In this document: positions 17,636-60,597 of the stretch, piece by piece
Numbering within the stretch: position 1 is the stretch's first letter
Layout of the letters: the number at the start of each line of letters is the position of its first letter
NCBI GenBank assembly: GCA_963924565.1
Contig: OZ004613.1
Coordinates: 24,490,001 to 24,554,000 of the forward strand
Direction: 5' to 3'
DNA: 64,000 nt
Source of the DNA: Ascidiella aspersa
Lineage: Eukaryota
Program-made: the position numbers and the translations under genes
The notes under the pieces: generated by a model
The model's database searches: none
What the model was told of the DNA's origin: nothing
What the model saw: only the letters and a program-made list of their open reading frames with translations

Positions 17636-20600
17636 TCGGCGATTCTCCGACAGCGAGCTTGTCCATTTGATAGTTAAAATCCAGCCAGGACTTTTTGGGA
17701 TTTTGACTTACGGATGTCGCTGCCATTTACACCATCACACTTGTCGTTAGGTATATGGAAATAGCTACCGTTGGAACTATTGGATTTATGCTATTTACCG
17801 TTTGCAAAACACATTGATTTCCAGGTAAAAGCGGTGTAAGTACAACATTGTGAAAATGCGAAAACCAGTACGGAAACGTCGTTTCTATTGATTTAATGGC
17901 GAAAACAAAGTCGAACAAAGGCAACTTTTACTTCGAAACATTGTGGCACACTTCACCAGGCTCCAATTGTTTTACGTGTTTTACCTTGGTCGCCGACCAG
18001 CTTTAATATTTTGTCCTTGGCGTGCGCTAAAGTGTTACAAACGACCTAAAGAGCGTCGCATTCCGCGCAATCAGTTTCGGATTGTTTCGGTAACCATTTC
18101 ATCATCAAAACACTTAGAGCGGACCATGTTATCGCGACCCGGTAAGCTTGTGAACTCTTTTTTTGCTTGACAGTCAATCAGTTTGGCCGGCAGCGGCTTG
18201 TCGTTGTTGCGCTATGAACGAGGCGGGTAGCCTCAAGCCAGTCTCGTGGCCACACTCTTTTTAGCCGGCGAGCTTTTCACTGTCGCATTTTGACGTAGGC
18301 GTAGGCGAGACTGTTGCAGATGTGCGAATTTTGATAAACAAACATGTGTTCCACTGTTGAAGTCAGGAACAGGATTAATCAGCTAGAGTACATAGTTAAG
18401 ATCGTACACTCTCTTTGTAGTTGCTTACTGACCAAAGGAATTTTTACCGAACAGTATACTTTTTAGATTTGTTGTAACCGTACACCGCTAGCGACAGGCT
18501 TTGGTTTTGATAAGCTGGTAAGATATGTAAGGACGCTGAGTTAAAATTTTAAAGTACTGCGTCGTTTTGAGAGAAACCTATAATTTGAAAAAGTCGACAA
18601 CATTTCAGTTTGCAAGGTAAAACGGGTGACGAAATATTCTTTCAAACAAAATGGGTATAAAAGTGCTAAAACGACTGGTCATGATTGAATTTTAGGATTA
18701 AATGTTGGGCATGAGCCTGTGGAAAACCGCTCTACTTCAGTTTACAATTTTATTCAAGCGAAAAAGCAAGTAATTGGATCAATGAGGAAACGTCCAATTT
18801 GCCGCTTCGATATAATAGGCACTTCTGAAAATGTTACCAATGTACGCTATCGATTAGTTCGGTTTTTCGCAATTACTGGCAAACGTGTGGCAATGTTCCA
18901 TCAGAACTGCCAGTGGGGATTTCCAGCAAATATAAGAGTGCAAAAAGAGTAATTTACGACCATTAACATTCGAAATTATGCTTGCTAATTGCTCCCAATG
19001 TTAAGGCACCCAATCACGTAGCCTTCACTATTCTAAACAATCTACAACTGAAAGACTGTTGCAGATTACAAAATCATCAAGGTCATCGATGGGCTTCATT
19101 ACATGGTATTCGTGATTTAACCACTCAAAGATACTTGTTGCTATTCTCTCGTTATCAAGATTATTCTCAGGGCTGTGAAAGTTTGAAGCACAGCCAATTG
19201 AATTTGTCAATTTTGTTTGTGTCGTTCTGATTCACGTAAGCCGCTTACATTGCAGTGATGAAAAACTTTGTTGTTTTGTTGACAATAACGTGTTGCGTTG
19301 TTTATGTCATATGAATGAGTTTTTTCGTTTGTTTTCGCCTTATTTAAACCAGAAAATGTTGAGATTTTTTTATCCGTTTGATAAATTAGTAAATGTATAT
19401 TTAGTGTAATAGTGTTCGTCAGGTCAAATTATTTCTAATAATGCGTTGTTAAAATGACGGGTAATATTTCAGCTTTTAAAATTTGAAGTGCAACACGAAA
19501 AGGTTTTGGTTAAATTGGTATTTTTGTCAGCTTGTGTTGACATAATTTGATGTGGGAAGATCAAAACTCGACTCCTGGCAATGACACGCTGACAACCATC
19601 AATACATGTTTCGGGATTAATTACCCAAACAACCAAAATGGGTCCAAAGAACTCCAATTTCAGGCCAACAACAAATTACTGGTGGCTTAATGATAACAAC
19701 TGTCGCGCCAAATCCGTAGGCGGAGTGTTAGCCATATCAAACAGCAGCCTCGCTTGCTTTTTCCAGTAAAGATTATATTAGCTACAGTTTTGCCTTGCAT
19801 CCAATCTAACATACCCGCATGCGCCCACGTCTGTTGTCAGTCGAAATATTTTGAAGTTATCAGCGAAATGCACTTGTCTGGCAGTTTTCCGAGCGTAGAC
19901 AGAGCACAAAAGAGTGCGGTTTTTACGAAGTGCTTTAAGTGATTGTGCAAATTACTTACGATCTTTGCATTGTTAGAAACGTTTGAGATAATTTTGTAAT
20001 TGCAGGATTAAGTTTGAATTTACAGATTTAAGGAAAGCATATGAGTTTGTGGGCAACAAAGAATCCTGTATTGGAGTAATTTGGGCGATCAGTGCTTAAT
20101 AGTAACATTTGTTCCGCATAATGATAAATTTCATAGTATATACGCATAAACGACTGGGAGAAATAAACATTCCCAACCTTAAAAAACAATGAAGTGAAAA
20201 ACATTTTGTATCATAATTTTTGTTACGAAGCACATCAGCGCTCATTGGCAACTTGAAAATGCAAATCTTTTTTGACTTTAGTTTTACTTGTGGGACTGCA
20301 AGTCTTAAAATTTCCGCGTTCGGTATTGAGGCAGTTGGTGTACCTGTATCGTAGGTTATTTTTTGCGGTGATCTAACCCGGAGATAACGCTTATTTATCC
20401 TTGCCTCTAGAGAAAAAAAGAAGCGGACAAGCCGCCTAAGCCGCATTCCTCCGGATGCAGCAGCGATAACTGGCAGCCGTTTCAGTGGCGATTTTAGCGG
20501 TTTTAAGTTGGCTCTGTGAACCGAAGAAACAAGGCCATGTCGACCTGAGCCCGCGGAACAATGCCGCCAAGAGGATTTCTGAAGAAGTGACGCACGTTTT

Positions 20601-20691
20601 CGTCTGTGACCTGGCCAAGTTTTGGAATTACCTCTGCTTTCTCAGCGCTTGGTTAACAAACGAAGATTGGAGTCTTAACAAGCTGTGAACG

Positions 20692-23600
20692 ATGCACGGA
20701 CAGAAGTGGACATTGCTTTCTTTAGTGCTGCTGGCCGCCGCCACATTTCAAGCGGTGTTTTGTGCGGATAAGCTGGTTTGTCAGTTCAAGCCGGTGTTTG
20801 CCACTGCTGAAGGTATGTGGAATGTAGGCTAAGCGCGCGGGTGTTTTTTTACATACCGACTTATGGCGACATCTTTTAAGGTTGGCCAACCGATTAAAAC
20901 CGAGTTTAGGATGTTCTAATGTTTAACAAAACTCCCTATTTATATTTCACGAAATAAAAACGCTTATATTTCATAGGCCCGACGGATATAGCCTAGTTCT
21001 CTTCTATATAATAAAATGTTATTCGTACGAAGTTTGCGACACTACAATAATAAACTAACCTCGTACCGTGCTAAATGCTAATCTTTTTCCAAGGCATTGA
21101 GTTACTATATAATTAGTTGCTGTCAATGTCACCTGATACTGCAAAACTCGGTGCTTATTTATTAAGTTAGTAGTTCCCACTATTCTATACTCTCACATAT
21201 CTTTTAACCCCTTTGGCTGCACAAAAAACTTAATTTGAATACAACGTTGCAAACCTTAAAATAACAATCGCCTTTACAGGTACATTACTGAACACAATCT
21301 TAGTAATATATAAAGACAAATTGTACTAAATTCTTGACAAGCTTTCGCCCAACCATGCTTCATCAGGATAAAAATTGTGTCTTCATTTATCTTATGCACT
21401 GTCACCTTATTCCTCTATTTAAATCTTAACACATCGTCCCTGTTTTAGGGGATGCACCCCCTCCCCCGCCCCCAACTACGTCACTGCTGGGGAGGAAGGC
21501 GGGGGTGAAACCGACCCACTGTTGCGGGGGAAGACCCTTTAACTCCGACCTGAGCCTTTGTTGTCTGGGCAAGGTTCTCAGTCAGACGCACAGAAAATGC
21601 TGTTTGGATGGTTCTAACGTTCCTAAAGCAAGCCGATGGTGAGTTTAAAGCAGAATTTGTCGTTCTCAACTTTAAACCAAAGGTCGGTCGACAACCTTTT
21701 CACAGTCGCGGGTCAAAAACAAATTAATGAAGAAAGATCTCTGCTGGCTGACTAAATTTTAACTAAGAATTATGTTATTATTAGTAGAAATATCTAAGCC
21801 CATACAGAAGTAGTTATCATAAAACGTCTAACGAAAACCTCCAACCATTATGCTCCACAGTTAAGTTATTGAAAAGTGTAGTTTTTAGGTTTTATTAGAA
21901 CAGTTGTAAATCTGGCCGAACTAGGATTATTCGCAATGAAAAACAATATAATGATGTTCGAGTATAGGCATAAAAGCGTTCGCGCGAACCACAACATAAC
22001 ATGTTGTTTGAATAATAATTAATACTCCTTGCGTGTCCCTATTTGAATTTACGTGACAATTTTTGTTGAATATAGCTGATTGAAACAAAGTGCTTCGCAA
22101 ATTTTAAAAATATTTAACCGCCAAGTTGTAGGAAAACAGGTTTAAAAAAAAACGAACACTGTTATGATTCACTTTCGAACTAGTAAAGTAGTGTGGGGGA
22201 CATTCCCTGTAATAAACACATTTATATTGTATGCGTGCAAGTCGCTTGTTGTCGCCACACATCGCGTGATTTACGACTTTCAATCAGTGAAGAAAACTCT
22301 AAATGTACAGAGCAATACACCCGACGAATTACAACTCGTTCACACCAGGATAAAACGAACAACAAACGGCGTAAATCCTTGTCAACACGAATTAAAGGTC
22401 GTCTTTGACGGCATCGTAACCAACTGCCCGTTAGGCTTTGTATCATTTGTGTTTCATATCAACGAACAACGCGCGTGGGTGCATTGTTGGAAGCCCTATA
22501 GCCTACACAAATGACTCAAGCTTACGGTTTGACGCCAGCATGCTTTTTACTCCGGGCGACCGCGAATAGGCGGCCGATTTTCGAATCCCGCCGCCGGCTA
22601 TGCCGAGTTAACGCTATTGCTCCGCGATCGAGCATCATTGCTGGAGATCAATGGGGTCGGGTTTACGCTTAACTAGAAGTTAATCGCCTAATGTTAGGCG
22701 CGCCGCACTTGCTTGCGCCAGATTGTGTCACGCTGCTGTACAGTAGGGCCTGGGGAGAAATCTCACACGCCTATCTCCAGTGTTAAACGATGCCCATATG
22801 ACTATATGTTTTGCTTCACCATTGGCGTGAGAAATTTTGCATTTTCTTTCGTCCACGAGTGCAGGGTTTCTTTCTTGACTTACTTGTATTCCAAGTTTAG
22901 TTCCCAGCATATACTCGTTCCAATAATTGCCCGGTAATCACGGTACGACATTTGCTTGTTTTGATCGGCTCTTGGTCATACTTGTTTATTTTTCGCAATT
23001 TACTGGAACAAATCTAAAGTATTCAAACAGTTGTGTCAATATACTTTGTTTATCTTAATGAGAAATTACCCTGTTATGCTCATGCGAATTTTTGTAACGG
23101 AGAAGCGGACAAAGTCAACTGTTAATATTTTACGTGTCGAAAGTCACTTGCCACTATATTATTTTTCCTAAATTATTGTACTAAACCACTAAGGCCAGAT
23201 ATTTTACATTGAAATTACTTACAAGTTCGTATTTTGAGAATCATGGACAACTTGGTTTGCTATATCCGCGGGTGTATTGGCTTAATGGCCTTCCAAACGC
23301 TATAGCATAAGGTGCATATATTATACACTTCTGCGTTGCCCTGACATTTCTATCAAAATATACCAGATCAGTCGAAATTTTTCCTGATTAGGTTAGGCAC
23401 CGCATAGGATCACGTAAGCAATATAAATCCGCGGACACTTTTTCGGACACTAAATAATCCCGGGAGGAGAAACAAAACACTGAAACTCTTCTGTTCCCAT
23501 GCAGTCGTTGCTACCCTACTTCGACGTGGCTCGTCCAGCAACTGGAAAAGCTCTCCGACCTGGAGTTTGAACTGACAGCACTGCTGGAAAACCTTGACCG

Positions 23601-26600
23601 CCAAGTTTCCACCATGAAACAGTTAAGTGAAGAACAGTTGTGCAGATTGCGTCGTGTAGGGATGACTGTTGATATCGGATCGCTGCCGATACCCGAGGCC
23701 AAATGGTAGCATGAGTACTCGTCCGATAGTGGAGCAGTATCGGTGTCGATCCGATACTAATTTATTATCGGAATTTTTGACATGATTTGCGATCTAAGGC
23801 AGCAATTTTTATCTTGAAAATTAATTTTATTTACTATAGAAGGGTAACTATAGGTTTCCTAACATTCAGCTAATGTTGGCGTAATATCTTTGAAACATTT
23901 TGACGTAATTACCTGTAAATGTTATAATTTAATCTATTTGAATTTTTTTGCCCAAAATATCTGGTGTCGGTTTCGGATTACAATGTAAAGTATCGGACAT
24001 CTCTAGTCATGTGTCCTGATATTTTTTTTCATTATGGTCAAAACATCAAGACACTTATTTTCATAGATATGGTAAAATTACTTTTTGTGTCAACCTAAGA
24101 ACATTAAAGTGACTAGAAAAGGACACCAACGGTCAAACGTGTGTATCTATCATGGCGGAAACCTATAATATGATTTTTTCGCCTAAAATAAATAATGGGG
24201 GGGGGGGGCGGTCGTTACACAGCAATAATACCTTGTACTTACTTTTAGGCAGGCGACTATAGCTGCAAAACGTTTTTTATACTTCGTTTGTTGATTTGGA
24301 GTAGACTGGAGAGTTAGAGTACACTATAAAGAAAACCTTTTTCGAGTTTTTTATTTGCGTGTTGTTTTATCGGCCTTCAGACAAGTTGCTAAAGTAATAT
24401 TTGTAATTATATCGAAACGCTGTTACCACAAACCAAGGACACAAGTCAGACTTTATTTAAAGCACCAGTACTGTTCTATGATTGATTGTTACAACAGTCA
24501 CAAAAACATTTTTAAATCATACATTACTCTGGTGGGAGGAGTACCGTCTATCGTGCTACATCGCATTGCCAACATTTAATGAAAGACACACGAACATGCA
24601 TTTAACATATGTAATGTATCCCTTCTGAAGCTTCTTTTTTACCAACGATTACGGCTTACGCATCAATAGTCCACCGAAAGCCATCGCAGACTAACCGAAT
24701 GGAGCCTGTGTAGCTCAGTTGTTAGATGGCCGGAGACATGGCCGGTATGGCCGGAGGTCGTGAGTTCGAACGTTGTTTTTCGAGCCTTCTTTTCTTGCAT
24801 CATTCATCAACAGATTCGGCTTTCGGTGTGCTCAATTTTTAGCTATAGTTAAACCCTGTCGCTTTTTTGCATCGAGTAGACTACAAATCATTTAGTTCCG
24901 CACACTGACTCCTGTCTTCCTTTCCAGGAAGGTGTTATCCAAGGAGGAGGTCCTGGGTGTCCTGGATGCAAGAGCGAACCGGATGTTTCAAGCGCTCATC
25001 CAACTTCTCGGCATCGACAGGAACCAGGCTCCGGGAGAAGTGGACGACATCATCGCCATGGTAACGCTCTTCTTTGTTTGTTGTTATTTCAATGACAAGA
25101 GATGTATCTGAACAACATTCGTTGTGTTAACCGTGTGCAAATACAGTTAACACAAGACATGAGAGAGTTGCGTTTTTTCATGTATATTTAAACGTGGCGA
25201 TACCTTCTGTGTTATTTCCAAAATAAGTACTATTTACTAAATGTTGATAATTTACATGGCACGATTTTAAGACAAACATCAATGTAATATGGCTGCTTCG
25301 GTTTAAATGTTCATTCTGCGGATCAAAACACAGATAAAATAAATTATAGAAATGAATTACTCTTAGGTGCATTAGTTAGTTTAAAACTTTTACATGTTAT
25401 TTAAAAAAAGTACTACTATAGTATTACTATTCCTGACCAATCTATACTAAAAACCTTTGTAATGGCTGCAAAGTATTTGCACAATGGCAAGTCAGGTGGT
25501 GGAAACCATTCCTGCAATGTGGCATGGGAGTTAACTACCCTTTATGTTTTCTGCTCTGGTTAAATCAATTGAGAGTTCATTCAACGCAGTCGTTCCCAAC
25601 CTTCGCTATTTTAAATTTTTCTACCTACCACACACATTTATAATGAAACCTAATTCTAAATCAGCTGCCATTGTGAAGTTGTGTATACTAACAGAATGCA
25701 GTGTTTATTGGCGTCATGCTTGATTTTCGATACGCTCCCGTTGAGCCTGTGTGGCCCAGCTTGTAAAGCGACGGTACCAAAAAGGCCGGAGGCCGTGAGT
25801 TCGACCCTTGTTACAGGCTAGTCGTTTTTCTAGCCTGCCTTGCTTGCATCATTGATCAACAGATGCATTTAGTCTGTTGAAAATTTACGGTGTGTATGAA
25901 AGCCGTTATCGTTCTTCGTTAACGTTTTTCAAAACGACTTTCGAAGGGCTACACGACTTCAAAAGGCTACACACAGTTGTCGAACATGTATGTGTGTCAT
26001 TCTAATTAAGCTGTTCACAAAATTTGTGCTTCGAAAGATTGATTTTAATTTCTGATGAGCTGTTTTGCAAGTGAGAGTTGATTTAACGCACCTTCTTAAA
26101 ACCTATAGATCCGCTTCCTTAACACGAACGAAGACTACACGGCGCAAGCGCGGAAAAACGCAAACCTCTTCGAGGAGAGCTTCGTCGGCCTTGTCGACAT
26201 CACAAATGACGGCACCGCGTCCTCCGACGATCCCGGAGGAACAAACGCTGAGGTGGAGGAAGAGGATGTCCGTGAGAACCTCCGGAGAATCAAGAGGGAG
26301 ATCGAACAGCTGGAAAGAAGCGCGAGAGCTGCTGAGGGTGTGTCGCAACAGGTTGGCCGAGCGTTGAAGTGTGCGTTTGGTTGTATATGTTTACGCAAGG
26401 GATGAGGAGTCGGTTTAAAATAACCCGAGTCGACTTTGGCCAAAAATGTTAATCGCGAGTCCGATTTCCGAGTCCGACTCCGGCCAAATGTAAGATTTTG
26501 TCGAGTCCTGCGTTCGGCTTAGACTCTATAGCTTGTATTTCACCCATTTACTTGACTGAAGTAAGTTGGATATTCAGCAATCCACTCATAGAAGTGTCAT

Positions 26601-28194
26601 ATAATTCATCCACCCACAACACATGATTGGAAAATAATCCACCATATGTTATTTCATCTTTACACTTTGAAGTTTGCGGTCTTATCAGCTTCAAAATTTG
26701 GTACTGAGCATGCGAACGTCGGACTCTGGACTAGGGTGAAATTACGTATAGCCTTACTCGAGTCCCGTATGTCTTGTGTTACTCTGCAGTCCTGGTTTAC
26801 ACAATTAGCAAGTTCCAAACCGGTTTGTCTTTTGGCATAACCTGAAAATACCACTGAAAATTGTTTGAATAAGACCTCTACAGGTATTAGTCAATACATG
26901 CCTACCCTTTCATCAGTTGTCATGTACAGTAGGCTAAAACTTGAGTATATCTATGCGGTAGACGTTAAAATTTGTTGTTGAAGCTTATTTTTAGGTAGCA
27001 CATCCTGTATGTAATGTGTCATTTTCTAAATTAAAATATAAATAATAAACTTAGACTGATAACAATGTACCCCAATATTAAACACCTTCTACGAAACCAA
27101 CCCTTATTTTCCCTAAACGGTGTATCTTTATGGAATACAATCCTAATTTCAACGTATTACGCGCATCTCTACTCCAGGTAAACCGGCAACTCGATGAAGA
27201 AGTGTCCACCTCCAAGAGCGAGCAAACGCGGAAGATCGTCCTGGAGCGCGATCGGATCCTCGCCGAGATCCTCTCAGAAAACCGGGTCCTCCGGAAGCTC
27301 AAGGATCGTCTCCTCGCCATGGAGCGCATTAAGAAGATCCTGGAGGCGGATCGGGCTCTTCTCGTCAACTTGAGAGGGATGCTGGACACGATCTTGGCCG
27401 AAGTCATCCGAATGGAGGCCGCTGAAATGGAGGAAGGCGAGTTGGATAGAAGATTCGGGAGCAGGAGCCGCAGGAGCATTGAAGAGGAAGAGAAATTGAA
27501 GATTATTAGCCGCAACAAAGCGCGGAGAAGTCCGAGTTTCCAAGCGGAGTCAATCGACCCTTTGCGCTTGCGACCCAGTGTAAGTTCCCAGGAGGAAGGC
27601 GAAGAGCAAACGACGGCCAACCCCCCAAACAGCGACGGGGCCGGGGGAAGTCCCGCTGTCAATTCTTCTCTTGAGTCGTCTTCATTAACAACCGCCTCCG
27701 CTTTGACACTAAACTCAACCATGTCGATTCTAAAACCAGCTGCAATAACAACAACCACACCGATGAAGACCAAGGCCTCAAAAACGCCGCGACCTTGCGA
27801 CTTTTCCGCCTGGGAACGCTATGTCGCGACATTTGTGCGGCGAAGGGACCTCACCAAAATCGACCTTGGCGACCTCATGTCGCCTGTCGCGGGCGACACG
27901 CGCGACAATTTGACCCCGACGCGGTCAAGGGTTGAGCGTAGCTTTTTTGCGAACCGTTTTGGTGGCTGGTCGCTTTTAAACGATCGCGTGACGCCGCCGG
28001 TTCGCCACCGACGCAACGTTTCGGCGCGACAGGAGAACGCAACGCGACACGTTTTCGTGTCGCAGCGACTGGAAATGTCGCGCCAGTTTCGGGCAAGAGC
28101 TTTCAAGTGGCTCGATTCGGTGGGCCGCAATTTTGACCGAAATGCGTTAAGGGAAAGAGTTCTGCCGCTGCTGCGAAAAAGTCAAATCAAATGA
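20692..28194 (+). CDS. Uncharacterised secreted protein (~606 aa): signal peptide, Pro-rich linker, galaxin-like di-cysteine repeats, coiled coils, S/T-rich linker, multiple furin-type sites
   Basis: Exons 20692-20812, 21449-21638, 23505-23621, 24928-25060, 26109-26351, 27178-28194; all GT-AG with intron phases 1,2,2,0,0; total 1821 nt. N-terminus MHGQKWTLLSLVLLAAATFQAVFC is hydrophobic. Cys region: HCCGGRPFNSDLSLCCLGKVLSQTHRKCCLDG...RCRCYP. The last exon corresponds to ORF 27130..28194. Confidence 0.8.
23657..24005. mobile_element. MITE, same CCGATA-rich family as 51805-52175
   Basis: Starts TAGGGATG...GATATCGGATCGCTGCCGATACCCG and ends TATCGGACATCTCTA. Confidence 0.65.
24702..24830 (+). 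mobile_element. tRNA-derived SINE copy
   Basis: Pol III A-box TAGCTCAGTTGTTAG and B-box GAGTTCGAAC, followed by a non-tRNA tail (CTTGCATCATTCATCAACAGAT) shared with the copy at 25743. Confidence 0.7.
25743..25895 (+). mobile_element. tRNA-derived SINE copy
   Basis: GAGCCTGTGTGGCCCAGCTTGTAAAG...GAGTTCGACCC followed by CTTGCATCATTGATCAACAGAT; homologous to the copy at 24702. Confidence 0.7.
26397..26794. mobile_element. hAT-type MITE (GAGTCGG-repeat family), inverted relative to the copy at 47463
   Basis: GAGTCG/CGACTC subterminal repeats; TSD GTTTACGC vs GTTTACAC (7/8); interior resembles the reverse complement of 47463-47875. Confidence 0.75.
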
Positions 28195-30324
28195 TCTTGA
28201 TATTCACATTTCCGGGTCACAATTGCCCAAGCTTAGACGCCGATAGAGGGTTAAAGGTGTTATGATTTGGTCGTTTCACCAAGTTACACTTTTTGTGGCG
28301 ATATTAGGCAAGGAACAATGAAACGTGCAAAACGCTTAGGGTGAAATACTCTAATTGCGCCCAGAAGAGCAAAACGTAGTGTTGTTATTTGAAGCTTACC
28401 ATAAAGCAGACCGATATGTCGGACAATTTGAATCCAAACTATAAAAACCACCTTTTTTATTGGGCCAGAGTTTGAGTTTTGCGAAATAAGCTGAGAAATT
28501 GCCTTCAAACTATAAATAGCGGAATGAACGGATCTAAAGAGAACCGTAATAGGGCACAATAGATACAGAAAAAGCTCGACCTAGTTTTCATATTTGTTCT
28601 GAGCGGATTAAGCAGTAAACTGAGCCGGCGCTGGGCCTTTCTAACCTCAACTGGTCGTGCCTGGTGCAGTTTGATCGGCTCGTATATATGGGCAGGTATT
28701 TAGCGCAACTGCCGTCTGCGAATGCCGGTTGTTGATGCTAACTTGCGATGGTTAAGCAGCGCAACACAGGCTAAACAAACCGGTTCATCCGGTTATCGAG
28801 ATCCTTGTATACCGCTCGCTCTCGCAGATTCTCACGTCTGGCATTGTTTCGAAAATCGGTGAAAACCATATTAACGTAAGCCGTCGTTAATAAAAAAAAA
28901 ACGATTTTCGCCGGTTTCTGGAAGTTCGCGAAAATCGGATTTCGTTTCAGTAAAACTCATTCCGTTTTTCAACGTATTGTAACGCGTCTCGGGCGTTAAT
29001 CTTCACTTGAGTTACTGAGTACTAAAACGCCGTCGCCAAACTCTATACCTCAAGCCAAACCGACATGCTCCCGCTCTACAGCTATTAGCAATCCTGCGCT
29101 TAAAGCACCGAGAGGTATTATGCAAAACCTCTAACGCTTTGTGTTGGTTGCCGCTATGCAAAAGTATTTCGTTGTGCGAATTGCCAATATGCCACTAAAC
29201 ACTAATACACTTTGCATTTTCTGCGCGTTGGCAATCTTTCGTTCGTGAATCTATGCGTTTCTCGTCCACCACTCACTAGTTCTGGCCAATATGTCGATCG
29301 TAGTTTACAGCTTTTCAAAGGTATAGTTTAAAGGGAATTGTTGAATCAGTAGTTTGCTTTACAAGTGACAGTTCAGTACTATGTATTGTTACGGTTGTGC
29401 GAAATCTTGTTTCTACAAATTACAATTTCATTTGAAACCTTGGCACTTATTTGCATTCAAAGAGTTTGGATTTTACCCCAGATTTGTGCCGTTTTTGTGA
29501 AAGTGTGCCCTATTCCTTAAAAAAACACAAATATGATCGAGGTATAATTGTTGGATCCTTGTGAAAAAGAATTTTTAATTGTCGACTTCAAATGCACTGT
29601 CAAAATGTCTGACAAGTTGTTCAAGTTTTCGAAGGCTGAAAATGGTCTTAATTTAAGTTCTATCCATGAGCATTTTTTGCATGGCTCCTTCATTCTAATG
29701 TTTCGTGCTGTGCTTCAGCTATAATACTAATACTTCTGATCCATACTCCAATTGTCTTGTCGTAATTCAAACGGCGCATCGTCGAAGACATCTTGTCAAT
29801 TATTTAACGAGGTTTAATTCTCCTTTAATACTAAAATAAATTTATCTTGTACTCTTGTTTTCCACTACTTCAGACGGCGACCCAATTTTTAGGTGAGAAC
29901 CATAGGCTGAAAAACACTGGCCTACAATAACAAACGGACTTAATTAACACACCATTGAATTATGCATAAAATGTTTCGTTTATTAAATAATAGTTTCAGT
30001 TATTTTACTTGGTACTAAACGCGTATCACTTTTTTTAAGATTAGGTATGCGATATACTTTAAGTAAATAAATAGAAGTTGCGCCGTTCTCGTATGTTTTG
30101 CAACAGATTTTTTGCTTTTAGATGCCAATAGTCGAAATCCAACAAAAACTGTAGCCGATGTTTTGCGAATTTTTGACACTTCAAATCGTAAATCTACATT
30201 TCCATTTGAAGTTGCGAGATAACTCCAACACAATTGCTACAGCAAGTGTTTCAAGTGCCTTGTAGTTCAGTGTCGCGATCTGTATTGCACGCGCGGGCAT
30301 GAGATAGCAACAAACAATAGGAGT

Positions 30325-30776: not shown

Positions 30777-31704
30777 GGTAGACTATAAGGAATGTGTATA
30801 GGAACAATACGTTGTATTGGTGAAACATATTTGACCTTAGCCGTTCTGCTGGAAGAAAAAACATTCTCACATTACGAGGTTTTCCATTAATTCCATGTTG
30901 GTTCGATTTTTCTTAATAAATATTTCATAAAGATTGTGTTGTTGCCCTTAGCTTTGAATATACATCACATTTACTTAAGATTTATCAAGTTAGTGACGTG
31001 CCTAATAATTTCAGATAAAACGAGTTTATCCAATACATGATGTTGAAAATGAATAAAGAGATGAAACATTCAAAATGAAACCTACCTCTGTATGGGCTTT
31101 GATATTCTTATTATACATCATACTACAACCTCTAGCCTTTATGTTTCAAAGCAGGATTTGCTTTTTTATGCTGAAGTCTTGCCTTCGACTTGACATGTCA
31201 CTGATTAAGTCAGGCAACTCGTTACTCGAAATTTACTTGATTTATTATAATAAACTGGAGTAGATTATAATACACTTGATTCGTGATCGGACTTGATTTG
31301 TTCACAACACTGTTTCTAACAGAACCATTTTATTCGCCTCTATATCAAGCGAGAAAAAAGCACACGTCCAAAATTTGGGATGAAAAACAATTAACGCCGG
31401 GTGACCTATGACCGCCAGCATAATAAGCTCCGCTCAAAAATCGGACGATTCTAAAACTCTCCGGAACTGCATTACGGCAAAATCAATAAATCACTTAATG
31501 TTTACAACGAAATGTAAAATGATTGTTTGCAAAATTAAATAAAGGCGAAATAGATCAATACTAGCCCCTAAATTTATTTACATTCAAATAGCTTTGTACA
31601 TGCTCCAAATAGCGTACAATACAAGTTCAGCAAAACCAAAAAATTATCTCTTTTCGACTGATGTCCTCTGTAGCACAAGCAGACGCGGTAATAAGGGTCT
31701 TTAT

Positions 31705-34700
31705 TTAGATTTTCCCTTTCGCCCAAACGATCGTGGTTGGTCCTTTGACGTCATCAATGTGACATCTCACCCTTCCGCTTCCGAGGTCGATGATGTCGAC
31801 TCCGTTGAGTCCTGAGACCGCTAGGTGGCGATCGTACCTAAACATATTTTTGTTAAAGGGGACATTTAAGTTTATAATACAAAAAACTACAGTCAATTAT
31901 GTATAGTCTTGTTACTTCAAGTACAACCAACTAGACGCGAAAGCAAGCACGTGAATGTCTGCATTTCAGAATTATCGTTTACGTGATATTGTGGCAAACC
32001 TGGACAGTACAATCCTTGTTTTTTCTGAAAAAAATCATCTCTGCCATTCCTAGTCTTAAAAAAATACCTATTTATAGGGGACATATTGCGTAGTGAAAAA
32101 AGCTATAAAAACCCACTAGAGTTCATTATACAAATAACAAACGCACGTTGAAACAAATTTTAGAATTAATCATTGGCACGTCTTCAACTTTCTATTTAAA
32201 TATTAGATAGAAGGGTTGCCTTTTGGTATGTCAAAAAGTAACGCTTGAATATTTATGTCAAAAAGTAACGTTTGAATTTACGTAATTGACCGACTTTAAG
32301 GCAAAACGGTCGAAACGGTTGTTGTCGGTACCATATTACTGGTTTGAAGAAAAAAAGGAAACGACTCTTCAGTTTAAAAAAGTGAATGACATCGCAGTTT
32401 CTTAAAATAGTTCAAAGGAACATGTAGTGAAGTACCATTTCAACAATAATCAAAAACAGCTCTTCTGGTAATTGTAATTGTTAACAAATGTTTCGGCAGC
32501 CTATTCTAATCGACTTCTTCAGGTTGAATAACACCGAACGCTCGTAGTAGAATATATATTTTTCCATATATTGGTTAAAAACAATTACCATATATGAGCT
32601 GTTTTAAATATTATTATTATACTTGGTAGCAACAGTTTGTAAACATTTCAACACTTCAATAGCGTTCGACTTACCAGCCACTGGAAACCAGTGCTCTGTT
32701 CTTTGGCCCCCAGGGATAGTCAGGCGCAGGTACAGGTGAAGATAGGTTGTTGATGATGCCCATGAACCCACTTGCACCCATGCGCATGATGTCGCCTGTT
32801 AAATAAAAACTCGTTGTAACCATTTTTGCGCTTCAATGCATCAAATATACTTTTATGGTAGGCCTACACGTTTTCTCCATAGAAACCGAATAGACGTAAT
32901 ATATTTGCACAGCGCGCGATTTACTTGGCTTCAGTATTAATTGCACACCAGTTCCTTCGAAAATAGTACGTTTCTTAAGATTACTTAAATAGTGACATAA
33001 CTTGGGAATTTAAATTTAGGATTTCTCGGTGTCCCTTCCCCCAAAACAATATTCTCAATCCAGCCTTGCAAAATTGCTCCGCTTTAAAAAACGACGCGCC
33101 AACATACAGTTGGACCACGCTGGTTGAGACAAAACAAAACGCAGGTTGACCTTTCCTATTTTATTCTTCAAAAGCAAATGAAATATTATTTTGTCTCACT
33201 TAAATAATTTCAGCTATTTTTTATTCCCTTCGAATAATAATTAGTAAACGTGAGTAACTTGTACATTTAGAGTATAACTGTTTGTACAACATTTCAACTA
33301 ATTTAAAAATAATCACAATAATAAAAAGCGACCAAAGCAAATTTTCGAAAAGGATATTAGCACGCACAACTTTGCAATATGTAGGCAGGTATTTAAGCAC
33401 GAGCACGTATCTTAATACTTAGTAATAGCTTATGACAATTGCTTAATTGGGAATGTTACGTCAAACATGAGGAAAACCATTACCATAACTGTTTATAGTT
33501 TCCATCTATTGTATCAGATTACAGTTACAAATCAATCGGATTCGAGCCGAATCCAAGTCTCACCTTCCGCCTGTGAGGAAATGTACACTAAGGCCGCTTG
33601 GCCATTTTTGTCGCCTGGCTCGAACGCGACATCCGACACAGGAAAGTTGGTGTACAGAACCTAAAAAAATAATTGTTTGTTACAAAACGCCGTAAAAGCG
33701 AGTAAATTTTGCATTTTCCTTCAAGTTTTTTTGACGAGATTTCCAACTGAGTCATTAAACAAATAAAACAAAATTTAAAATCAATATTTTTTCTGATTCT
33801 TATGACCCTAGCCTATTATATACGTACATCGCACAGGCAAAGTAAACAGCGAAAACTGACAACTTGTGGAAAATCAATAACAACAAGTAATAAACACCAG
33901 ATTTTCGCCTCATAACCAGTGCATTTATTAAAACAAAAAAATACAGCGCTGGCAAACGTCAAATTGGAAAGATATAAATCCAAGAAGCAAAGCAACAACT
34001 TCCTTACCACATCTTCGCGCAAATCTCCCGAAGCTGTGACGTTGAAGATTACGAGCTGCTGCTCCATGGGGAATGCCCTAACCACGTGTCGGTTGTCGGG
34101 AGAGATGAACTGACGAGCGAAGTCGCTTCCTGGAGTAGAAAACAGACTTTCGTTTACATTCTGATGCAACACCATTTTAAGCTTGTAGGCGAATTTTGTG
34201 CGGAAACCAGGACTCGGAATTCGTAATGGTCGAACTCGAGTTTATTTTTTCCGTCTGAGTGGGACTCTTGTTTTTAGCCTACTACGCAGCCCTGTCAGTA
34301 AATAATATACTTTCGTTATGTTTCTTTTAAAAGAGAACTTCCTGTTTTGGCTGTTGTTGTTGTTTTGGCTGTTGTTGTTAATGTTGTTGTTGTTTTGGCT
34401 GTTGTTGTTAATGTTGTTGTTGTTTGGGCTGTTTTTGCTAATGTTGTTGTTGTTTTGGCTGTTGTTGTCAATGTTATTGTTTTGACTGTTTTGGCTGTTA
34501 GTTATTTTCCTCTAAGCACTTGAGTTAACAGACTTTCTTTGCTTTCGAGAGTCTATTTTAACTACAGATGTCCCCTGTGACACCATAAAAGGACCACTTA
34601 TGGATGCTATTTTGATTGGACAGTATTTACTAGGACCACTGTAAGGTTAAATAGTGCTTAAAACAATAATAGAGTTTTCTCGAGATTAAAGCTTACATTT

Positions 34701-37700
34701 TTTACTCCAATTAAACAATTATTGCCCCTTTTTGACAACTTAAAAATAAAAATAAAAAAGTTTTCCTCTTACTCTGATTAGGAGGAACCACTCTGCCGCT
34801 TTCATACTCCACTGAAAGTGTTCGCGGGAAGTCCTCCTCCAAGATCACGCACGTGACGTGCAGGAGGCCTCCGATTGGCTGATATGAGAACGCCTCGGGC
34901 GTGCATCCGAACGGCGACAGATCGATTACGGCATCGTCGTAGACCAGGGTTGAAAGGTCAAGCTTTTGGATGGTCTGTTGCGATTGGATTTATGGTTAAC
35001 TTCTATATAGTTACGTTAAAACAGTTCAGTTAAGCCTTGAGGTGTCCGATCCTTTTTTATTACAATTGAATTTTATTACAATTGTCTATATTTTAGAAAC
35101 ATTAGTCAAAGACTGTTTGATTAGGTCAAAAGCAAAATAGGTAATTTTGAGACAAAAGGCCAATGTACCTAAGTTGCTAGGCGTCATTTGCTGATAAAAG
35201 TGCTGAGAAAATGAGTTTTCCTTTCATTTTCAGCTTGAATTAACGGCCACCTGAATTTGAAATTGAATCAGCATCGATAGTAACCGAGTATCGTTTGAGT
35301 ACTGACATTCGCTGTTTTATTTTTGCGGTAAAACTCGGAGTCCTTTTAAGACTTTATGCAACCAATGCCCCACTTTGAATATTTGTTGTGGGCCTAACAT
35401 AGGTTGCACCATATATTGGCGGCTTATTTTACCCTATTATATTTCAATGTAAAAGTTGTCAGCAAAAACTAGAAAATATTTTGTGTCGATTTCATGGATC
35501 AGTAATTGTGACATTGATTTAATATCACGGTTCAGGGTTTTCTGATATGCGCACTACATTGGTTTATTAAAAACAGGGAGGGGGACATCCATTGTCAAGT
35601 TTGTTTCTGGATCCATTACGTTCAAAAAGGCGGCATCAAATATTTATACCCTAGACCTGATTGATATCGACCTGGTTTGGCTTGCTCAAATGTTTCACAT
35701 AAACACATCACTTGAAGCTTGGTTCGCGGAATTTCGTATTAACGCTGATCCGGGTAATGGATATAATGGCTTGTATTGACGTTTCGAAACATTATATTGA
35801 CTTTTGGAAACAATATTGTGAATTGTTAAATTTGAATTACTTATTGAACTTATTGTTACGTATGTTGTTAAGAGCTGTCTGTCATCAAATCTTGGTGATT
35901 TAAAGTATATTTGAAACGAATATTAGTCTTTTTAAAACGAATTTTTAATTTAAATTGTCCGCAGTAAATCTTGCCAAGTCATATATAAAAACAGTGCATA
36001 TAAATGTGTTGGATTTTTCAATTATACAAGTCATTACAGAACTGAAAATTAACATATTGCGAAAACTTCTAAAATAACATATTTGGTAGCTTTTAAAATA
36101 TACATTAAGGGCATGCTTAAATATTCCGTGGAATCGCATTTTTTAACTTTCCCTCTTTTTAAAACTGAAAAATCCTTGTCCCCATGCAACTTTGTTGTTT
36201 TTATTGTTACTCGTTTCCAAAATAAAAGGAATATACTTCTTAACCCATAACAACTTGATAAGAGCGTTAATATATATATACAAATGTGTCTTTTTGGTTA
36301 AGTCGGCCCCTAAATAAATTTGCATTTAAAGGTTAAACCTCTAATTGTGCTGAATCGTTTTTATTCGGCCTATGGCAGGGATTCTTAAACTATGGTCTGT
36401 GAATCCATTGGTGGTCCGGGAACTAATGTTAGGGGGTCCATCAATGGCAAACTAGTGTATAAAAAGTAGTCAATGTTTTATAGAACAGTTGAATTAAAAA
36501 AAACGTTTTAGGGCCGAATGTAGTTAGGCTTCCCAATTTACCTAAATCATCAGCATATTTTTGTCTGTTCAATGCAACATGCACACATATGTGTGTTAAC
36601 AACTGAGATCTAGCCCTTCTAAAGTTAGGCTTCATTACATAGTTTTTGTACATATTTTTGTCTATTTGAATTGGAGGTGGTCATTTTTGAAAATTTGTTG
36701 CCTATCGTGGTCCACGAGTCAAACAAAAAAAATAAAGGGGTCCGTGATAAGAGAAGTTTAAAAAACCCTGCCTATGGGAAGAATTTTTAACTATAACTAT
36801 TTTAAAAGCAAAATCTTTGAGACCTTCCACTTTACTAACCTGTTGATTTTTGTGGGCCACAAACCCGTGATGCGATCTCGCGTTGGCAACGCCCTCTGGT
36901 GGCACGTAAAACTTCAACACCGAGTGGTCGGCCCTCTTACCGCCATCGAGCGGCTGAATTTGCACCGCCGAGTGGCTTCCGGGGACGCTGGCCGCGAAAA
37001 TCACTTGCAGGGTGGAATGGTCCCGGGACGCGTCCACCCAACAGAGAACGAACAGCTGAGAAAAAAATACATTGGTTGGAATGAACAGTTACATTTCATT
37101 TGTAGGGTTGAACGTTTAAGGCTGATAAACTCTGTGGCCAGCGGCACCCTTCAGAAATATTAAATAGATTGCGGCAGCCCTACAAGATTTTTCCGTAGGT
37201 AATTCACTAGAAGTCACAATAAACGGAACTGGAACAACACACATCAACTCTTAACAACGTAGTAAGTTATAATTGGATTTATTCCACTCTAATCTTACAC
37301 AAAAAGTTTAGGAGTTGAACAAAATCAGATTTTTTTATTTCAATTATCTCTCGGCACGCTTGAGCATTAGAAATGGCACTCCAGGGTGCCGCGGCACATC
37401 GGTTGAGAACCACTGGGTTAAGGCGTTGACTATATATAGCACAGGTTTGTTGCGGGTCTGAATCTGTATGCGCTTCTGAGAAGCAGTGGTTGTTTGGTCA
37501 TGCGTTTTGTCTTGTAATTGGGTTAACAAAAATCGAGACTAGAATGTGATTCAATTTCAGAAATTTGTAAAGTTTAGAGCTTTTTCCTAGGATGCCTTTA
37601 TTGAGGCCTTTCTTGGCAGTTGTAGCAAATTTCGTTATGGGTGATGCTTCACATTTCAGACTTATTGTTGGTATGATTGCTCTCCATCTGATGAGTTTAT

Positions 37701-40700
37701 TAGTATTCCTATTATATATTATTTGTTTCTTATGTACATAGGCGAAATCCACTGTTTTAACAGTACACTGATAAATTATATCCACCTACACTGCAGCCCT
37801 AGAATATCCTAATAAAAATGTAGACACAAAAAAAAACATATCAAATCTAAAAAGAAAGATTATTTTAAATATATATATATATATATATTAATATCAATTT
37901 AGCGGAAAATGTTGTATTTTGTGATATGCTACCGAACGTTTCACCGCTATAGCTTATCGTTAAAATGCTTTTGTTTTAAAAATACGGCTAAGTACAGTTT
38001 AAACCCAATGAGCACAAACCTGGTCGGATGAGGCCACGTAAACGAAGCTTGCCGGGATCGGGTCGGTGGCTATTACTTCCACCACCCTTTGGAGGATCGC
38101 GTCCACGACAATAATGCGATTCTCTTTAGGCTGTGTGACGTAAACAAAACGAGCGCCAACCGAAACGGCCGACGACCACGAGCACTCGCGCACGCCGTCT
38201 AGCGGATTTTCGCTACACAGGTTGTTCTGCGTAAAAGATTGAGTGTGAGTTTGGTGTTGATAGTTTAACGAAAGGCGTTGACTGAATTGTGGCATTGCAG
38301 AGTCAGTCGCTCACAAATAATTATTTAAAATTATTTGAAGAATGTCATGAAGAATAGGATATTTATATTACATCAGCTCATTGGTTTTCAGTCAATAGAA
38401 GACAATTTACCACGTTCAGAGTTGACGACTGCCTCTCTCTTTTTTCAAACTTAGCGCATTAACTTTGTTTTTATTAGACAAATAAATAGACAAGTGAAGA
38501 ATGTCAATAATAACTTATTGGTATAAGGCATTTGCCAAATTTAAGCGTAACCGCTGTATATTTTGCCAATTCAAGAGTAACCGCTAAATAGTTTATCGCT
38601 TGGTAATTTTATTGTTAAAACAGCGATAGTGTCAATTGAAATAAAAGCCTTATTTGCTACATTATAACACATTACTGAGCTTCTTAATGTTAATATGCGT
38701 TGTACATTCCGCCAAACAAAAACGCTTTAAAAAAACGTTTCTCATAAAGCAATAGTCGGAGGAGAGTAAATAGGTCTAGTAAAAAAATCAATCCTGTTGA
38801 AATGGCTGCTTTTAGGCCAACATTGGTCATGGAACAAGTATTGTAACTAAAAACGCCATTGGACAAAGAAGCTTATTTGACTAGATCAGATTACAGCTTA
38901 ATCACAAATAATATTAGAATTATTTTCTAATTTTTTGAACCAGATAACTCGAATTATTCAGTTGTCAAAGTCTGGCGTATGCACGCAGTACAATACGACG
39001 ATTAAAGCAAACCGACCTGACGCAGTAATCCCGGCACGACCTCAGATGCTATCACGTGACGAACGACCTCGCACGACCTCGGCGTGACGATTAGGATCCC
39101 GGCATCGTGAAAAACGAAGTACGCCCCAGCGGTGGCGGCTCGCTGCTGATCGATCGCTGAAATTCGCCAAAGAATAGAAATCGAATCGGGTGAAAAACTG
39201 CGAGTAATGGCCTCTCGCGCGACTGCGAGGCTCCGTCCACGTACAAATTAAAATCGATCTTGTTTTCTTATAAATTGTTTGTTGCGTCGCGTTCGCTTTG
39301 AATTAGACCCAAGTCGGAATGACGGAGTGCTGCCCTGATGGACAAACGAGAGCACTTAGAGTGTTATTCTGCTGCGAGTCCAATTGCTAATGATCGAAAT
39401 TCACCCTTGGCATTTAGCCTAACTGTGTCTTAAGTACGGTCAATGTTTTTTTGCTGCGTTTGGGGACTTAAACATTGATTAGTGCCGAATGGAGACCAGT
39501 TGCTGGTGTCCAAACCTTGAACAAGAGCCGTGCAAGGCAAGATAGCTCATTGGGCGTATACGTCTAAACATGTTGTCAAGGGAAAACCTTTTTTTTCCTA
39601 ATCATATTTAGGAGGGCCTAATGCAAATTGATTTTTACTGTCTATTCTTGGCGTTTAAATTTTTCTCATTGTTCCAAGCTCGTAAGCAAATAATTTAAAG
39701 GGCTTTTATTTAGTTGCATAGAAATTAGTTTTATTGGCAACTAACATTCTCGTAAACTAAATAGCCTTCCTTTAAAAGTTATATACAACACTAGTTATTA
39801 TCAACTTATTTCGGTGGGGGGGGGTTCATCTTTGTAAAGCCTAAGAAAATACACAAGATTGCTTTTTAATTTTGGTCATTTTAATGGCCGCTTGCAGCTG
39901 TCTTGGTTGCACAAATGATTTTTTTTGCAGCAGGCAATCGAAACAATTCCGCTGACTCCTAAATTTAAAACTGACTGGCTCCAGTGACTATACGTCAGTG
40001 TCTCATTGGAACAATACACAAATATAATTGGCTGTCCTTACCGCGGTCTTACAATGGTCATGTCAAACGGTATAATATAAATAATTATTGCGTTATTACA
40101 AGACGTGTTCGCAGTTGGTTTGCTACATTTGTTCACCTAGAGATGTGGTTCTTAACCTTGATTGAGTTGTGACCCTCTTTAAAAGGCTCTCAACGCTCTG
40201 TGCCCCGCACTTAGATGAGGGATGAAATTTTCGTATATCGGTATTAGTTTGCAAACGAATCCAATAAGATTATTTCTGTATTTCTCCCACACCGACTATC
40301 ATCCATTTCCGTCAAGACACGCGTTTAATGTGTTGAGTAACTTTTAGCAAGTTACAACGTAATCGGAGTACACACCTGGTGTGTCTGCTTGATCGTCTGC
40401 TTCCTCCACGAAAACGGCTCCAATCACTTCGGCGTTGCCGCCATCGTTGGTGGCAAAGCAGCTGTAGGCCGCACTGTCGGTCACTTCCACGCTGTTAATC
40501 TGTATTTCCGTGTTGTTTGCTGAAAAAGAGAATATAACGAGGTTTCTTAAAGCTGTAAAAAACGCTATATATGCTTTACTATTTTCACAACTGCGTATAG
40601 GTGTTGATTATTTTGCATTGCTAGTTTTTGTTCAGCTCTCTGCAAACTGGTGACACGCTTGTGATGACACCTCATAAAATTTACATGACACAGTGAAAAA

Positions 40701-58600: not shown

Positions 58601-60597
58601 TTAACGCAGGAAGGTTGGAGTCCGCAATCGTCACAGGGACAACGGAAGTCGTTTTCCGGACAAATACAATCTCTTTCATCGCTCCAATCTCCACAATCAT
58701 TTTCCAGATTACAGCGCTTTTCCTCTTTCACACTTCCAGCATAGCAAAGCGTTGGAGTTTTAAACGAACTACAGTCGCAATGGAAGTATAAACAGTTACG
58801 TTCATCGCTCCAATCTCCACAGTCATTGACGCGGTCGCACACCTTGCTTTGTTCCACGCAACCCGCATAGTTAGTACAGTTCGCACCTAACCACGAATAG
58901 CAATCGCATTGAAATAAGTCCCACGGACAAGAGTAGCACCATTGCTCATCACTCCAATCGCCACAGTCATTTTCGCCGTCACATTCTATGGCGTACAAGG
59001 ATGCGAGGTAGTTCCCTGTACAAGTACTGTCGTTCGCACATGAGCAAACGAACCAATAATCTGGCCAGTAACAATCCACTTCGTCGCTTCCATCAACGCA
59101 ATCTTTGTAACCGTCACAGGCTTGCCATGCGTCTATGCACCAAGCATCACCAGCACAAGAATCGGATCCAAAACGTGCGCACTTACATTCAAACTTGTGT
59201 ACACACGTGCACATACGCTCGTCCGAGTGATCGGAACAATCATAAAACCCGTCGCATACTTTGCGCGTCTGCACGTTCGCAACTTTGCCAGAGCAAGTCT
59301 GGCCTTTGGCGAAACAGTCGCATATAAACACTTCAGAAGCGAATGTGCAGTTTATTTCATCACTAAAATCACCGCAATCGTCAATTGCGTCGCACACTTT
59401 CAAATTGGTATCTAAACAGCCAGGTGAAGTGGCGCACCCGTCTTGGTTGCAATGGCACTTGAATTGGCCAACGCCGCATTGACAGTTAACCTCATCGCTC
59501 CAATCGCCACAGTCGTTATCACGGTTGCACACCAACTCCCAAGGCACGTAAACAGGAAGTCTAGACTCACATGATCCGTTTCGTGCGCACGCGCAATAGA
59601 ATTGAATGCCAGCGAATTCGCATTCAAGTTCGTCGCTTCCGTCAACACAGTCGTTGATCCCATCGCATTTAGATGCCAACGGTATGCAACTAGTTGGATC
59701 GTGACATTTGTCGTTCACGTAGCGACAACCGCAAGAAAATTCTCCGGCACATTGACAGTCGGCTTCGTCGCTCCCATCGGAACAATCGCTTTTCCCGTCA
59801 CAGGTCTGATGCTCCAAGATGCACACTTCCGGGTAGGCGCACGTGTTGTTATTTTGGCACGCACAGCGAAACGTTCCACTTGCACAAGTGCAGTTGAGCT
59901 CGTCTGTGCCGTCCATGCAATCGAAACGACCGTTGCAAATTTCACTCTCTTTATAGCACCCCTGTCCATAATGGCAGTTCTGGGTTCTTAGTGGGCATCC
60001 GCATTTATATTCAGACTCTTCACAAAGACAGTATTTTTCGTCCGATCCGTTTGGACAATCTTCAATGTAGTTGCAAAGCGACGATTGCGGAATTACAGTT
60101 TGATCTGCATCGCTGAATCCATTAGCACTGAGGTAAGGCGATAGGTCTTCGGTTCTTGGTAGACATGAACATGGAATGGTTTGTTGCTCTGGGTGTGTTC
60201 TAATTGTGTTGCACAATTCTGTTGAAATAAACATTTACAGCGATTTTAAAATCTACCGTTAGCATGAGAATTGATATTTTGCAGGGCAGGAATTACAATA
60301 GCAGTAAATTTAAAAGCGTCATTGCGCAAAAAGTTATGTTTGATTTTAGAACTAAATAAAGGTATAGCTTGATCATGAAAAAGAGCGATTTCTATCTATT
60401 AATTAAATGATGTTAACTTTGCAATTCATTGTCAAGCTACATTACAGATCCGTGCAAAGTGTACCCAAATAAAGGTAAATTTACAAAAAAGATTTTGACT
60501 CACCAAAGTATTGATACCAAAGTGCGTCATGGTACCCTTCACTTTTGAAAACCTGACCTCCAAATATCAGCAGAAACATAAAAACTACGGATTGCAT
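55668..60597 (-). CDS. LDL-receptor class A repeat-rich rhodopsin-family GPCR (GRL101/RXFP-related 7TM, no leucine-rich repeats); ~1451 aa
   Basis: Exon 60597-60504 encodes signal peptide MQSVVFMFLLIFGGQVFKSEG; exon 60218-57404 is 2815 nt of LDLa repeats; exon 57114-55668 encodes the last LDLa modules and the 7TM. About 20 CDGxxDCxDxSDE-type motifs. LGR-type TM motifs: GN (TM1), NLSLSDFCMGLYL (TM2), WRTSAFC, VFTDFACWVP (TM6), LPINSALNPLIY (TM7). Confidence 0.92.
57121..57401. mobile_element. hAT-like MITE (TGTAAT/AATTAC-rich) forming almost all of GPCR intron 2
   Basis: Perfect 8-bp direct repeat ACCTACAG at 57113-57120 and 57402-57409. Degenerate terminal inverted repeats: ttggatcaatt near the left end and aattcatccaa near the right end. 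The interior is made of TGTAAT(T) units. Confidence 0.7.

Follow-up and report, generated by a model that had tools for sequence, protein, structure and literature searches.

An unnamed tunicate protein family, found at an Ascidiella aspersa locus, that joins a galaxin-like head to a predicted disulfide-clasped helical rod

Coral galaxins are mostly tandem di-cysteine repeats with about 12–13% cysteine and are cut before the repeats (PMC2726143), and those of Acropora digitifera carry 13–19 CC pairs (PMC4890752). Clusterin is a furin-cut precursor whose two disulfide-tied chains both contribute to an antiparallel three-helix coiled coil (PMC12527946), and IGFL1 is reported to bind IGFLR1 (PMC3099712). 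Here we describe a gene at positions 20692..28194 of a 64,000-nucleotide stretch of Ascidiella aspersa contig OZ004613.1 (24,490,001 to 24,554,000, forward strand; hereafter the window), the product of which recalls each of these systems in a different part. The gene is real and spliced, and we consider it fairly probable from predicted models that its product folds as a small galaxin-like head on a helical rod and matures into two clasped chains.

The spliced open reading frame (six exons, 1821 nucleotides, 606 residues) has no internal stop, and all five introns run GT..AG. Contig 9 of sequencing run X2 (1474 nucleotides, depth 10) aligns piecewise to exons 1, 2, 4, 5 and 6, which places the exons in one gene and not in separate genes; run X2 is not recorded as RNA, and an intron-free contig is what a transcript gives. 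Additionally, the spliced protein matches Ciona intestinalis LOC100176425 collinearly over its full length (30% identity over 615 columns, E 4e-88), so that the six-exon model of the original prediction holds. Exon 3 offers four in-phase donors, giving 606, 611, 612 or 634 residues. Specifically, contig 9 leaves a 118-nucleotide gap at the place of the 117-nucleotide exon 3, with no exon-3 piece among the matches listed, X2 covers 23547 and 23583, and the Ciona alignment is ungapped across the exon-3 junction; these three observations favour the 606-residue form. The longer forms were rejected on that ungapped alignment together with the lack of X2 coverage at 23680 and 23684. The 3' untranslated region is long, as a second X2 contig spans 27590 to past 29000. 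The poly-Pro run, the three CC pairs and CxC, the heptad-like helices, the Ser/Thr-rich stretch and the basic tail that had been read from the sequence are all present, and RIKR, RSRR and RHRR lie where they had been placed. The parts of the gene are as follows.

20480..20691, + strand: 5' untranslated part of exon 1; X2 contig 9 aligns from 20480, at contig position 28
20692..20812, + strand: coding exon 1, with the likely signal peptide (about residues 1–24) and the conserved lone Cys30 (20779-20781) in an L-x-C motif
21449..21638, + strand: exon 2, with the poly-Pro linker and the CC pairs C65/66, C78/79 and C91/92 of the galaxin-like head (PF24748 match below cut-off)
23505..23621, + strand: exon 3, with CxC (C104 across the junction, C106), an invariant Trp and the first half of helix 1
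24928..25060, + strand: exon 4, with the end of helix 1, a turn (D-P-x-E in most relatives) and the start of helix 2
26109..26351, + strand: exon 5, with helix 2, an acidic linker and helix 3 carrying the RIKR site
26286-26297, + strand: RIKR site (P1 R250), shared with Ciona only and inside a predicted helix
27178..28194, + strand: exon 6, coding part to the stop codon
27220..27429, + strand: helix 4, predicted antiparallel partner of helix 1 (models, hydrophobic period)
27463..27474, + strand: RSRR furin-type site (P1 R367), with equivalents in Ciona, Clavelina and P0011
27571..27789, + strand: Ser/Thr-rich low-complexity arm, residues 400–472, disordered in the Ciona model
27796..27873, + strand: Cys475 (C-x4-W) and helix 5, modelled as resting against the head and helices 1 and 4 (conservation, complex model)
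28003..28014, + strand: RHRR furin-type site (P1 R547), with equivalents in the same three relatives, the sole tail bearers
28015..28191, + strand: Cys-free cationic amphipathic tail of 59 residues, net charge +9, isoelectric point 11.9
28195..29000, + strand: 3' untranslated region, with the contig extending beyond 29000 (X2 record 12, 1788 nucleotides from 27590)

The product is likely secreted. Hydropathy over 19-residue windows exceeds 1.2 only in the window that begins at residue 7 (value 2.04), and this, together with the relatives, points to the N-terminal signal peptide that had been predicted; the highest value after the signal is 1.13, inside helix 4. The 606 residues include 11 cysteines (1.8%), ten of them in the mature protein: a lone C30, three CC pairs within 42 residues, the CxC and a lone late C475. 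All ten are present in nine of nine full-length relatives, and the truncated P0007, the tenth examined, has the first nine. Their spacing, 12-1-12-1-12-2, is conserved with a single 11 in a divergent branch. C475 lies within a C-x4-W motif whose Cys and Trp occur in 12 of 12 relatives covering the site, and two Trp are invariant across the family. The lone conserved C30 and C475 had been overlooked in the original prediction.

The head resembles the galaxin module. Pfam profile PF24748 matches exon 2 at 25.6 bits (cut-off 28, E 1.3e-5), which bears out the galaxin likeness proposed earlier at a sub-threshold score, and matches Ciona at 19.5–21.9 bits; the 64-residue fragment P0015 passes at 29.4. 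Since 16 of the 25 members of the family alignment match this profile at E<=0.05, we relate the head to the galaxin module. Like coral galaxins (PMC2726143), the protein has a likely signal peptide, di-Cys repeats about 13 residues apart and dibasic processing sites, although the galaxin site precedes the repeats and serves to remove a short propeptide. Unlike galaxin, it has just three CC pairs and little cysteine, closes the repeats with CxC, continues into about 250 residues of helix and has its cutting sites after the helices; the PF24748 score, the repeat content and the position of the sites all argue against galaxin membership. Across the whole genome PF24748 gives 39 matches elsewhere, some of which are a simple tandem repeat on contig C6. 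The head module is therefore widespread in this genome, and the present gene carries a short, capped version of it. Galaxin-like repeat exon clusters above the Pfam cut-off (L010, L013-L018) lie at C9 ~494000-564000, C2 ~37668000-37692000 and C6 ~28125000-28171000, and the best-scoring matches, at C6:85900-86500, come from the translation of one simple DNA tandem repeat in three frames. Short CC-x11-CC-x11-C module exons also stand in unrelated genes at L003:1462-1635 and L004 (minus strand).

To describe the fold, AlphaFold2 models were made of two relatives, the Ciona protein and P0021, standing in for the window protein. In the Ciona model (mean predicted local distance difference test score, pLDDT, 74.1; predicted template-modelling score 0.61; 284 residues >=90), a beta-strand head at 72–107 (block pLDDT 89–93) is followed by helices at 118–177, 186–236, 244–285, 293–393 and 462–486 and by low-confidence arms. 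The P0021 model (73.6 and 0.59) has the same order of elements. In all five helices, the hydrophobic period calculated from family hydrophobicity is 3.4–3.55 residues. P0021 superimposes on the designed antiparallel three-helix bundle 9rgv (96 residues across model range 106–414, Z 11.2, root-mean-square deviation 2.1) and on the dynein stalk 8i3j (131 residues, Z 8.8, root-mean-square deviation 1.5), both common helical arrangements that describe the topology of the model only. Helices 1 and 4 are thus predicted to form an antiparallel stalk and helices 2 and 3 a hairpin, with a three-helix bundle over residues 106–414 of P0021.

Structure comparisons returned generic helical matches. Foldseek gave no match at E<=0.001 in either PDB or BFVD, and sequence searches of PDB gave best E values of 0.054 and 0.026, both to generic coiled coils. 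In ESM Atlas P0001 had no usable match and the best for P0021 was 0.76; the best VIA-align Z scores, 11.2 and 10.4, are no more than common helical arrangements give. The VIA-align matches listed included neither clusterin nor usherin nor IGFL, and they barely covered the head, which was folded only as part of the whole protein. SMC arms, chemoreceptors, haemagglutinin HA2 and ClyA-type or Tc toxin helices appeared as weak rows and were set aside as likeness of shape only.

A complex model of Ciona residues 26–380 with 448–522 bears on how the late part of the chain is held. It scored 0.69, against 0.18 for the best of three controls; the score mark is reached by 51/78 solved complexes and 2/108 mismatches in a microbial calibration and by 39/65 and 2/126 in eukaryotes. 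Runs shared >=48% of contacts and the partner pLDDT was >=53. In this model, Ciona residues 459–486 contact the head (88–89, 101–103, 113–116), helix 1 and helix 4 through interface positions that are hydrophobic family-wide. In particular, the confident contacts place C459 on one chain with 113–116, which holds C114, on the other; C459 and C114 are the Ciona counterparts of C475 and C106, and because they come together in this way a C106–C475 bond is the simplest reading. The model supports, without proving, binding of the piece after R367, which it places back against the head and stalk. For the remaining cysteines, the 12-residue spacing and the exon ends on a single Cys suggest loops C66–C78, C79–C91 and C92–C104, leaving C30–C65. 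In line with a C-x11-C loop unit, a single Cys closes two other galaxin-like exons in the genome and opens a further one. We infer from spacing and contacts the map C66–C78, C79–C91, C92–C104, C30–C65 and C106–C475.

The basic sites fit this fold unevenly. The original prediction had read many convertase sites as partitioning the protein into modules. By count this is weak, with three R-X-K/R-R motifs against 0.98 expected in 5000 shuffles (P=0.07; P=0.035 with a P1' filter), and neither KARR (27517-27528) nor RVER (27928-27939) fits R-X-K/R-R. KARR is unconserved; the RVER position belongs to a short conserved motif, modelled as helix in Ciona, and the single strict site of Styela stands there. 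Conservation of the sites stood for R367 and R547, both kept in Ciona, Clavelina and P0011, and failed for R250, which only Ciona shares; in P0021, P0009 and P0010 no R-X-K/R-R occurs in the whole sequence. Such uncut relatives show that the core can do without cutting. The stretch from the head to helix 1 contains no basic site, and no R-X-K/R-R precedes C65 in the window protein or the 13 relatives scanned, the lone RK at residues 56–57 being unconserved. Because there is no site between head and helix 1, R250 is within a helix and the late piece is predicted to dock, the separate release of Cys-rich and coiled-coil pieces from a polyprotein is not supported, and at most the tail could be released. 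Five divergent proteins (P0012, P0016, P0026, P0029 and P0030) instead carry an Arg-rich site near position 200–206, after which stands a 45-residue linker with 6–10 Tyr and 13–15 acidic residues, a candidate for tyrosine sulfation or cross-linking. Each basic site is followed by polar residues. On this, and on the lack after the signal of any hydrophobic segment that could serve as fusion peptide, membrane hairpin or anchor, we rejected a fusion protein of viral class I and a pore former of the ClyA type.

Taken together, these results suggest the following course of maturation. The six exons give a 606-residue chain, with one match per genome search, from which the signal peptide would be removed just before L-x-C30. 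On the relatives' models, C65–C106 would then form the small beta-strand head and helices 1 and 4 an antiparallel stalk of about 9 nm, helices 2 and 3 a second hairpin, and helix 5 would return to make a three-helix bundle beneath the head, with the five disulfides closing as mapped above. A furin-type enzyme would cut at R367, in an exposed loop after helix 4, and at R547, before the tail. The products would be a 38.5-kDa chain joined through the helix bundle and C106–C475 to a 19.8-kDa chain whose Ser/Thr-rich arm would be free; the R547 cut would remove a 7-kDa basic tail, the only part, being Cys-free, that could leave. The arm (36% Ser plus Thr, missing from compact relatives) is likely glycosylated. 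In the divergent branch, cleavage would instead come behind helix 1 and leave an acidic, Tyr-rich arm loose, with the core again clasped.

Several points weigh against this two-chain account. The models are of relatives and not of the window protein, and the disulfides are assigned from spacing and residue contacts, with C30 not among the confident contacts. Both docked pieces come from a single gene, and as chains they are predictions, which puts the complex score outside the calibration of the tool. The R367-type site occurs in 3/12 relatives covering the position, so that the cut is not essential to the family, and the PF24748 match of the head stays below its cut-off.

The predicted plan also resembles that of clusterin, and the protein could be an extracellular chaperone or lipid carrier in which the ends freed by the cut bind clients. 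A signal peptide, a furin cut, disulfide-held chains and an antiparallel three-helix bundle of about 85 Å would be common to both (PMC12527946), and the plan is shared if the model holds. There is no sequence match, however, and clusterin profiles gave zero matches. On the overall fold, searches returned mostly generic helical matches. Unlike clusterin, the window protein would have a beta-strand head in place of a helical disulfide domain, one predicted inter-chain bond in place of five, and a polar Ser/Thr-rich arm in place of hydrophobic tails at the cut. Clusterin membership needs two five-Cys clusters flanking the furin site, and here nine Cys precede R367 and one follows. A clusterin-like function is highly improbable in our view.

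The tail admits another reading, in which it is freed at R547 as a basic amphipathic defence peptide and the rest of the protein is its carrier; this narrows the original polyprotein prediction to a single peptide. Its charge and lack of cysteine would suit such a peptide, as would its hydrophobic moment of 0.70 (the Ciona tail has net +12 and moment 0.65), and the preceding site is kept in 3/3 tail-bearing relatives. However, the Clavelina tail carries just +3, 9/12 relatives that reach the late cysteine lack the tail and retain the whole core, and a conserved 550-residue fold would make a costly carrier, so that we regard this reading as quite unlikely. By analogy with egg-coat proteins, which are secreted and matured by furin, the protein could also act in the gamete coat or in fertilisation, and its likely secretion, its furin sites and its fast divergence (ascidians share about 30% identity) would suit this; domain profile searches matched no ZP, EGF or TSP1 domain, and such a role seems very unlikely.

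The distribution of the family comes from searches of several kinds. Genome searches with exon 6 and with P0021, run on a 308.6-Mb assembly in which the window lies on contig C7, found this locus only, with no paralogs elsewhere in the genome or the window, and the gene is apparently single-copy. An exon 6 protein search returned one protein, Ciona LOC100176425 (XP_018669903.1, XP_002130134.1). With Ciona as query, a HMMER scan of 1.84 billion representatives gave 15 matches at E<=0.001, 14 of them new; ten of the 14 were identified by record, and the four shortest (64–81 residues) were left out. Two of the ten are named, Clavelina lepadiformis LOC143471170 and Styela clava LOC120347181, both uncharacterized, so that, as predicted, no characterised family is matched; the other eight are unnamed. 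The unnamed marine relatives include a larvacean-like branch. No non-tunicate name stands among these matches, the query being a single sequence that distant relatives may escape. Word-index protein searches returned 1, 1 and 6 proteins and missed relatives present in the full HMMER scan. The Ciona, Clavelina and Styela proteins are likely orthologs, with the same order of parts and all ten cysteines; the R367- and R547-type sites recur in the first two, and the Styela protein lacks both, along with the Ser/Thr arm and the tail.

In a 13-row tree, the five divergent unnamed proteins split from the ascidian-side group with support 100/100, the long branches being flagged. Oikopleurid introns have an A-rich acceptor. 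At the divergent loci, the intron of the head exon runs GA..AG (L019:577-976) or GC..AG (L020:1741-1819) with an A-rich end, and GA follows the same codon at L021:537-545. GV/AG introns are known in tunicate genomes, with the highest diversity in larvaceans (PMC13326754). We infer from the intron ends that the divergent branch is of larvacean origin. A first metagenome scan gave zero loci and a second gave four; locus L022, a weak and unconfirmed match, was not used. Taken together, the sequences suggest an unnamed family that is known only from tunicate-type sequences and spans three ascidian lineages and apparently larvaceans. Literature searches found no paper naming LOC100176425 or the related accessions searched, though Ciona KH/KY identifiers could hide some, and searches on galaxin with ascidian, Ciona or oikosin returned coral and other papers, none on this family.

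As for function, the clasped two-chain protein may be a component of the extracellular matrix, the likeliest of the roles considered here, to which we give slightly less than even weight. In the last and weakest step of the proposed course, the head would bind a matrix or cell-surface partner, and the stalk would act in spacing or assembly within an extracellular layer of the animal, for example the tunic, larval cuticle or house. This role is favoured because di-Cys repeat proteins are associated with extracellular frameworks and because a different galaxin-like gene of Ciona is epidermal (PMC2726143 for both), and the known range of the family matches that of the tunic. Other results count against it. 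The Ciona accessions are absent from the supplements of a tunic proteome (PMC7401272), in which other identifiers are possible, and of metamorphosis (PMC13225635) and immune (PMC10433773) proteomes, in which identifiers may differ. Of 80 larvacean house proteins, 2 are closer to ascidian proteins (PMC3390340), and the supplement of that paper had no match to the family. Four sequencing runs were aligned to the locus, and an RNA run among them, X4 (7.8 million records, about 6% of the run), gave zero reads on coding exons 2–6 and about two at the 5' end, so that transcription in that sample is low or absent.

Another role that would accord with fixed cysteines in a single-copy gene is that of a secreted ligand or ligand antagonist, the head of which would bind a receptor, as IGFL1 does IGFLR1, with the helical body setting range or latency and the furin cut acting as a switch. 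IGFL proteins, which we take to be secreted, presumably share a short CC-containing module with this head, and we assume that their cysteines resemble those here. One match per genome search, Cys and Trp fixed across distant tunicates and low read depth would all suit a ligand. However, the IGFL likeness raised in the original prediction was not borne out: the IGFL profile PF14653, 83 positions without long helices, matched 0/25 alignment members at E<=0.05 and nothing in the genome at E<=1, which argues against membership. The furin sites are missing or shifted in most relatives, and the long helix, not the head, makes up most of the conserved sequence. We therefore judge a ligand role unlikely.

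Some further observations concern the locus itself. The transcript contig begins at a splice-acceptor-like TTTCAG (20480-20490), and its 27 unmatched leading bases may be an upstream exon or a trans-spliced leader. In intron 2, a GC-rich stretch (22480-22800) has a single match in the whole genome; a 151-nucleotide X2 contig lies at 22647-22797 and about two sense-strand X4 reads at 22347-22527. Clavelina isoform X2 (P0020) uses an alternative exon before exon 3 as its start and has neither signal nor head. The stretch may be an enhancer or an internal first exon. High-copy intronic repeats (contig depth in thousands) lie at ~24700-24780, 25745-25860, 26400-26510 and 21790-21860; within the second, the sole Rfam match (25745-25819) is tRNA-like and below the cut-off, which suggests a tRNA-derived short interspersed element.

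Two other genes occupy the minus strand of the window. At 55668-60234, two open reading frames (944 and 486 residues) match LDL-receptor class A 12 times and twice, and a rhodopsin-family seven-transmembrane domain is also present; together they are likely one nearly intronless LDLa-repeat G-protein-coupled receptor. At ~31700-47000, a gene of several exons, among them Ig I-set exons and an acidic one, may resemble follistatin-like 4/5.

Tunicate coverings are built on cellulose. Published house proteins have little in common with ascidian proteins (PMC3390340). In a fuller reading, which we hold doubtful, the family would be a tunicate invention, retained in larvaceans and ascidians alike, that sets a galaxin-type head on a new coiled-coil rod, with two long-range disulfides clasping it and a furin loop that shifts between lineages, and it would be among the few protein parts common to the cellulose-based tunic, larval cuticle and house. 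The family is unnamed and apparently lineage-specific, and its architecture matched none in the searches made. It offers a minimal closed galaxin-type module of three loops with a testable disulfide map, and its likeness to the clusterin plan may reflect an independent origin. As a conserved secreted rod in three ascidian lineages and apparently in larvaceans, the gene is a direct candidate for knockout in Ciona and may prove to be a shared matrix or signalling part.

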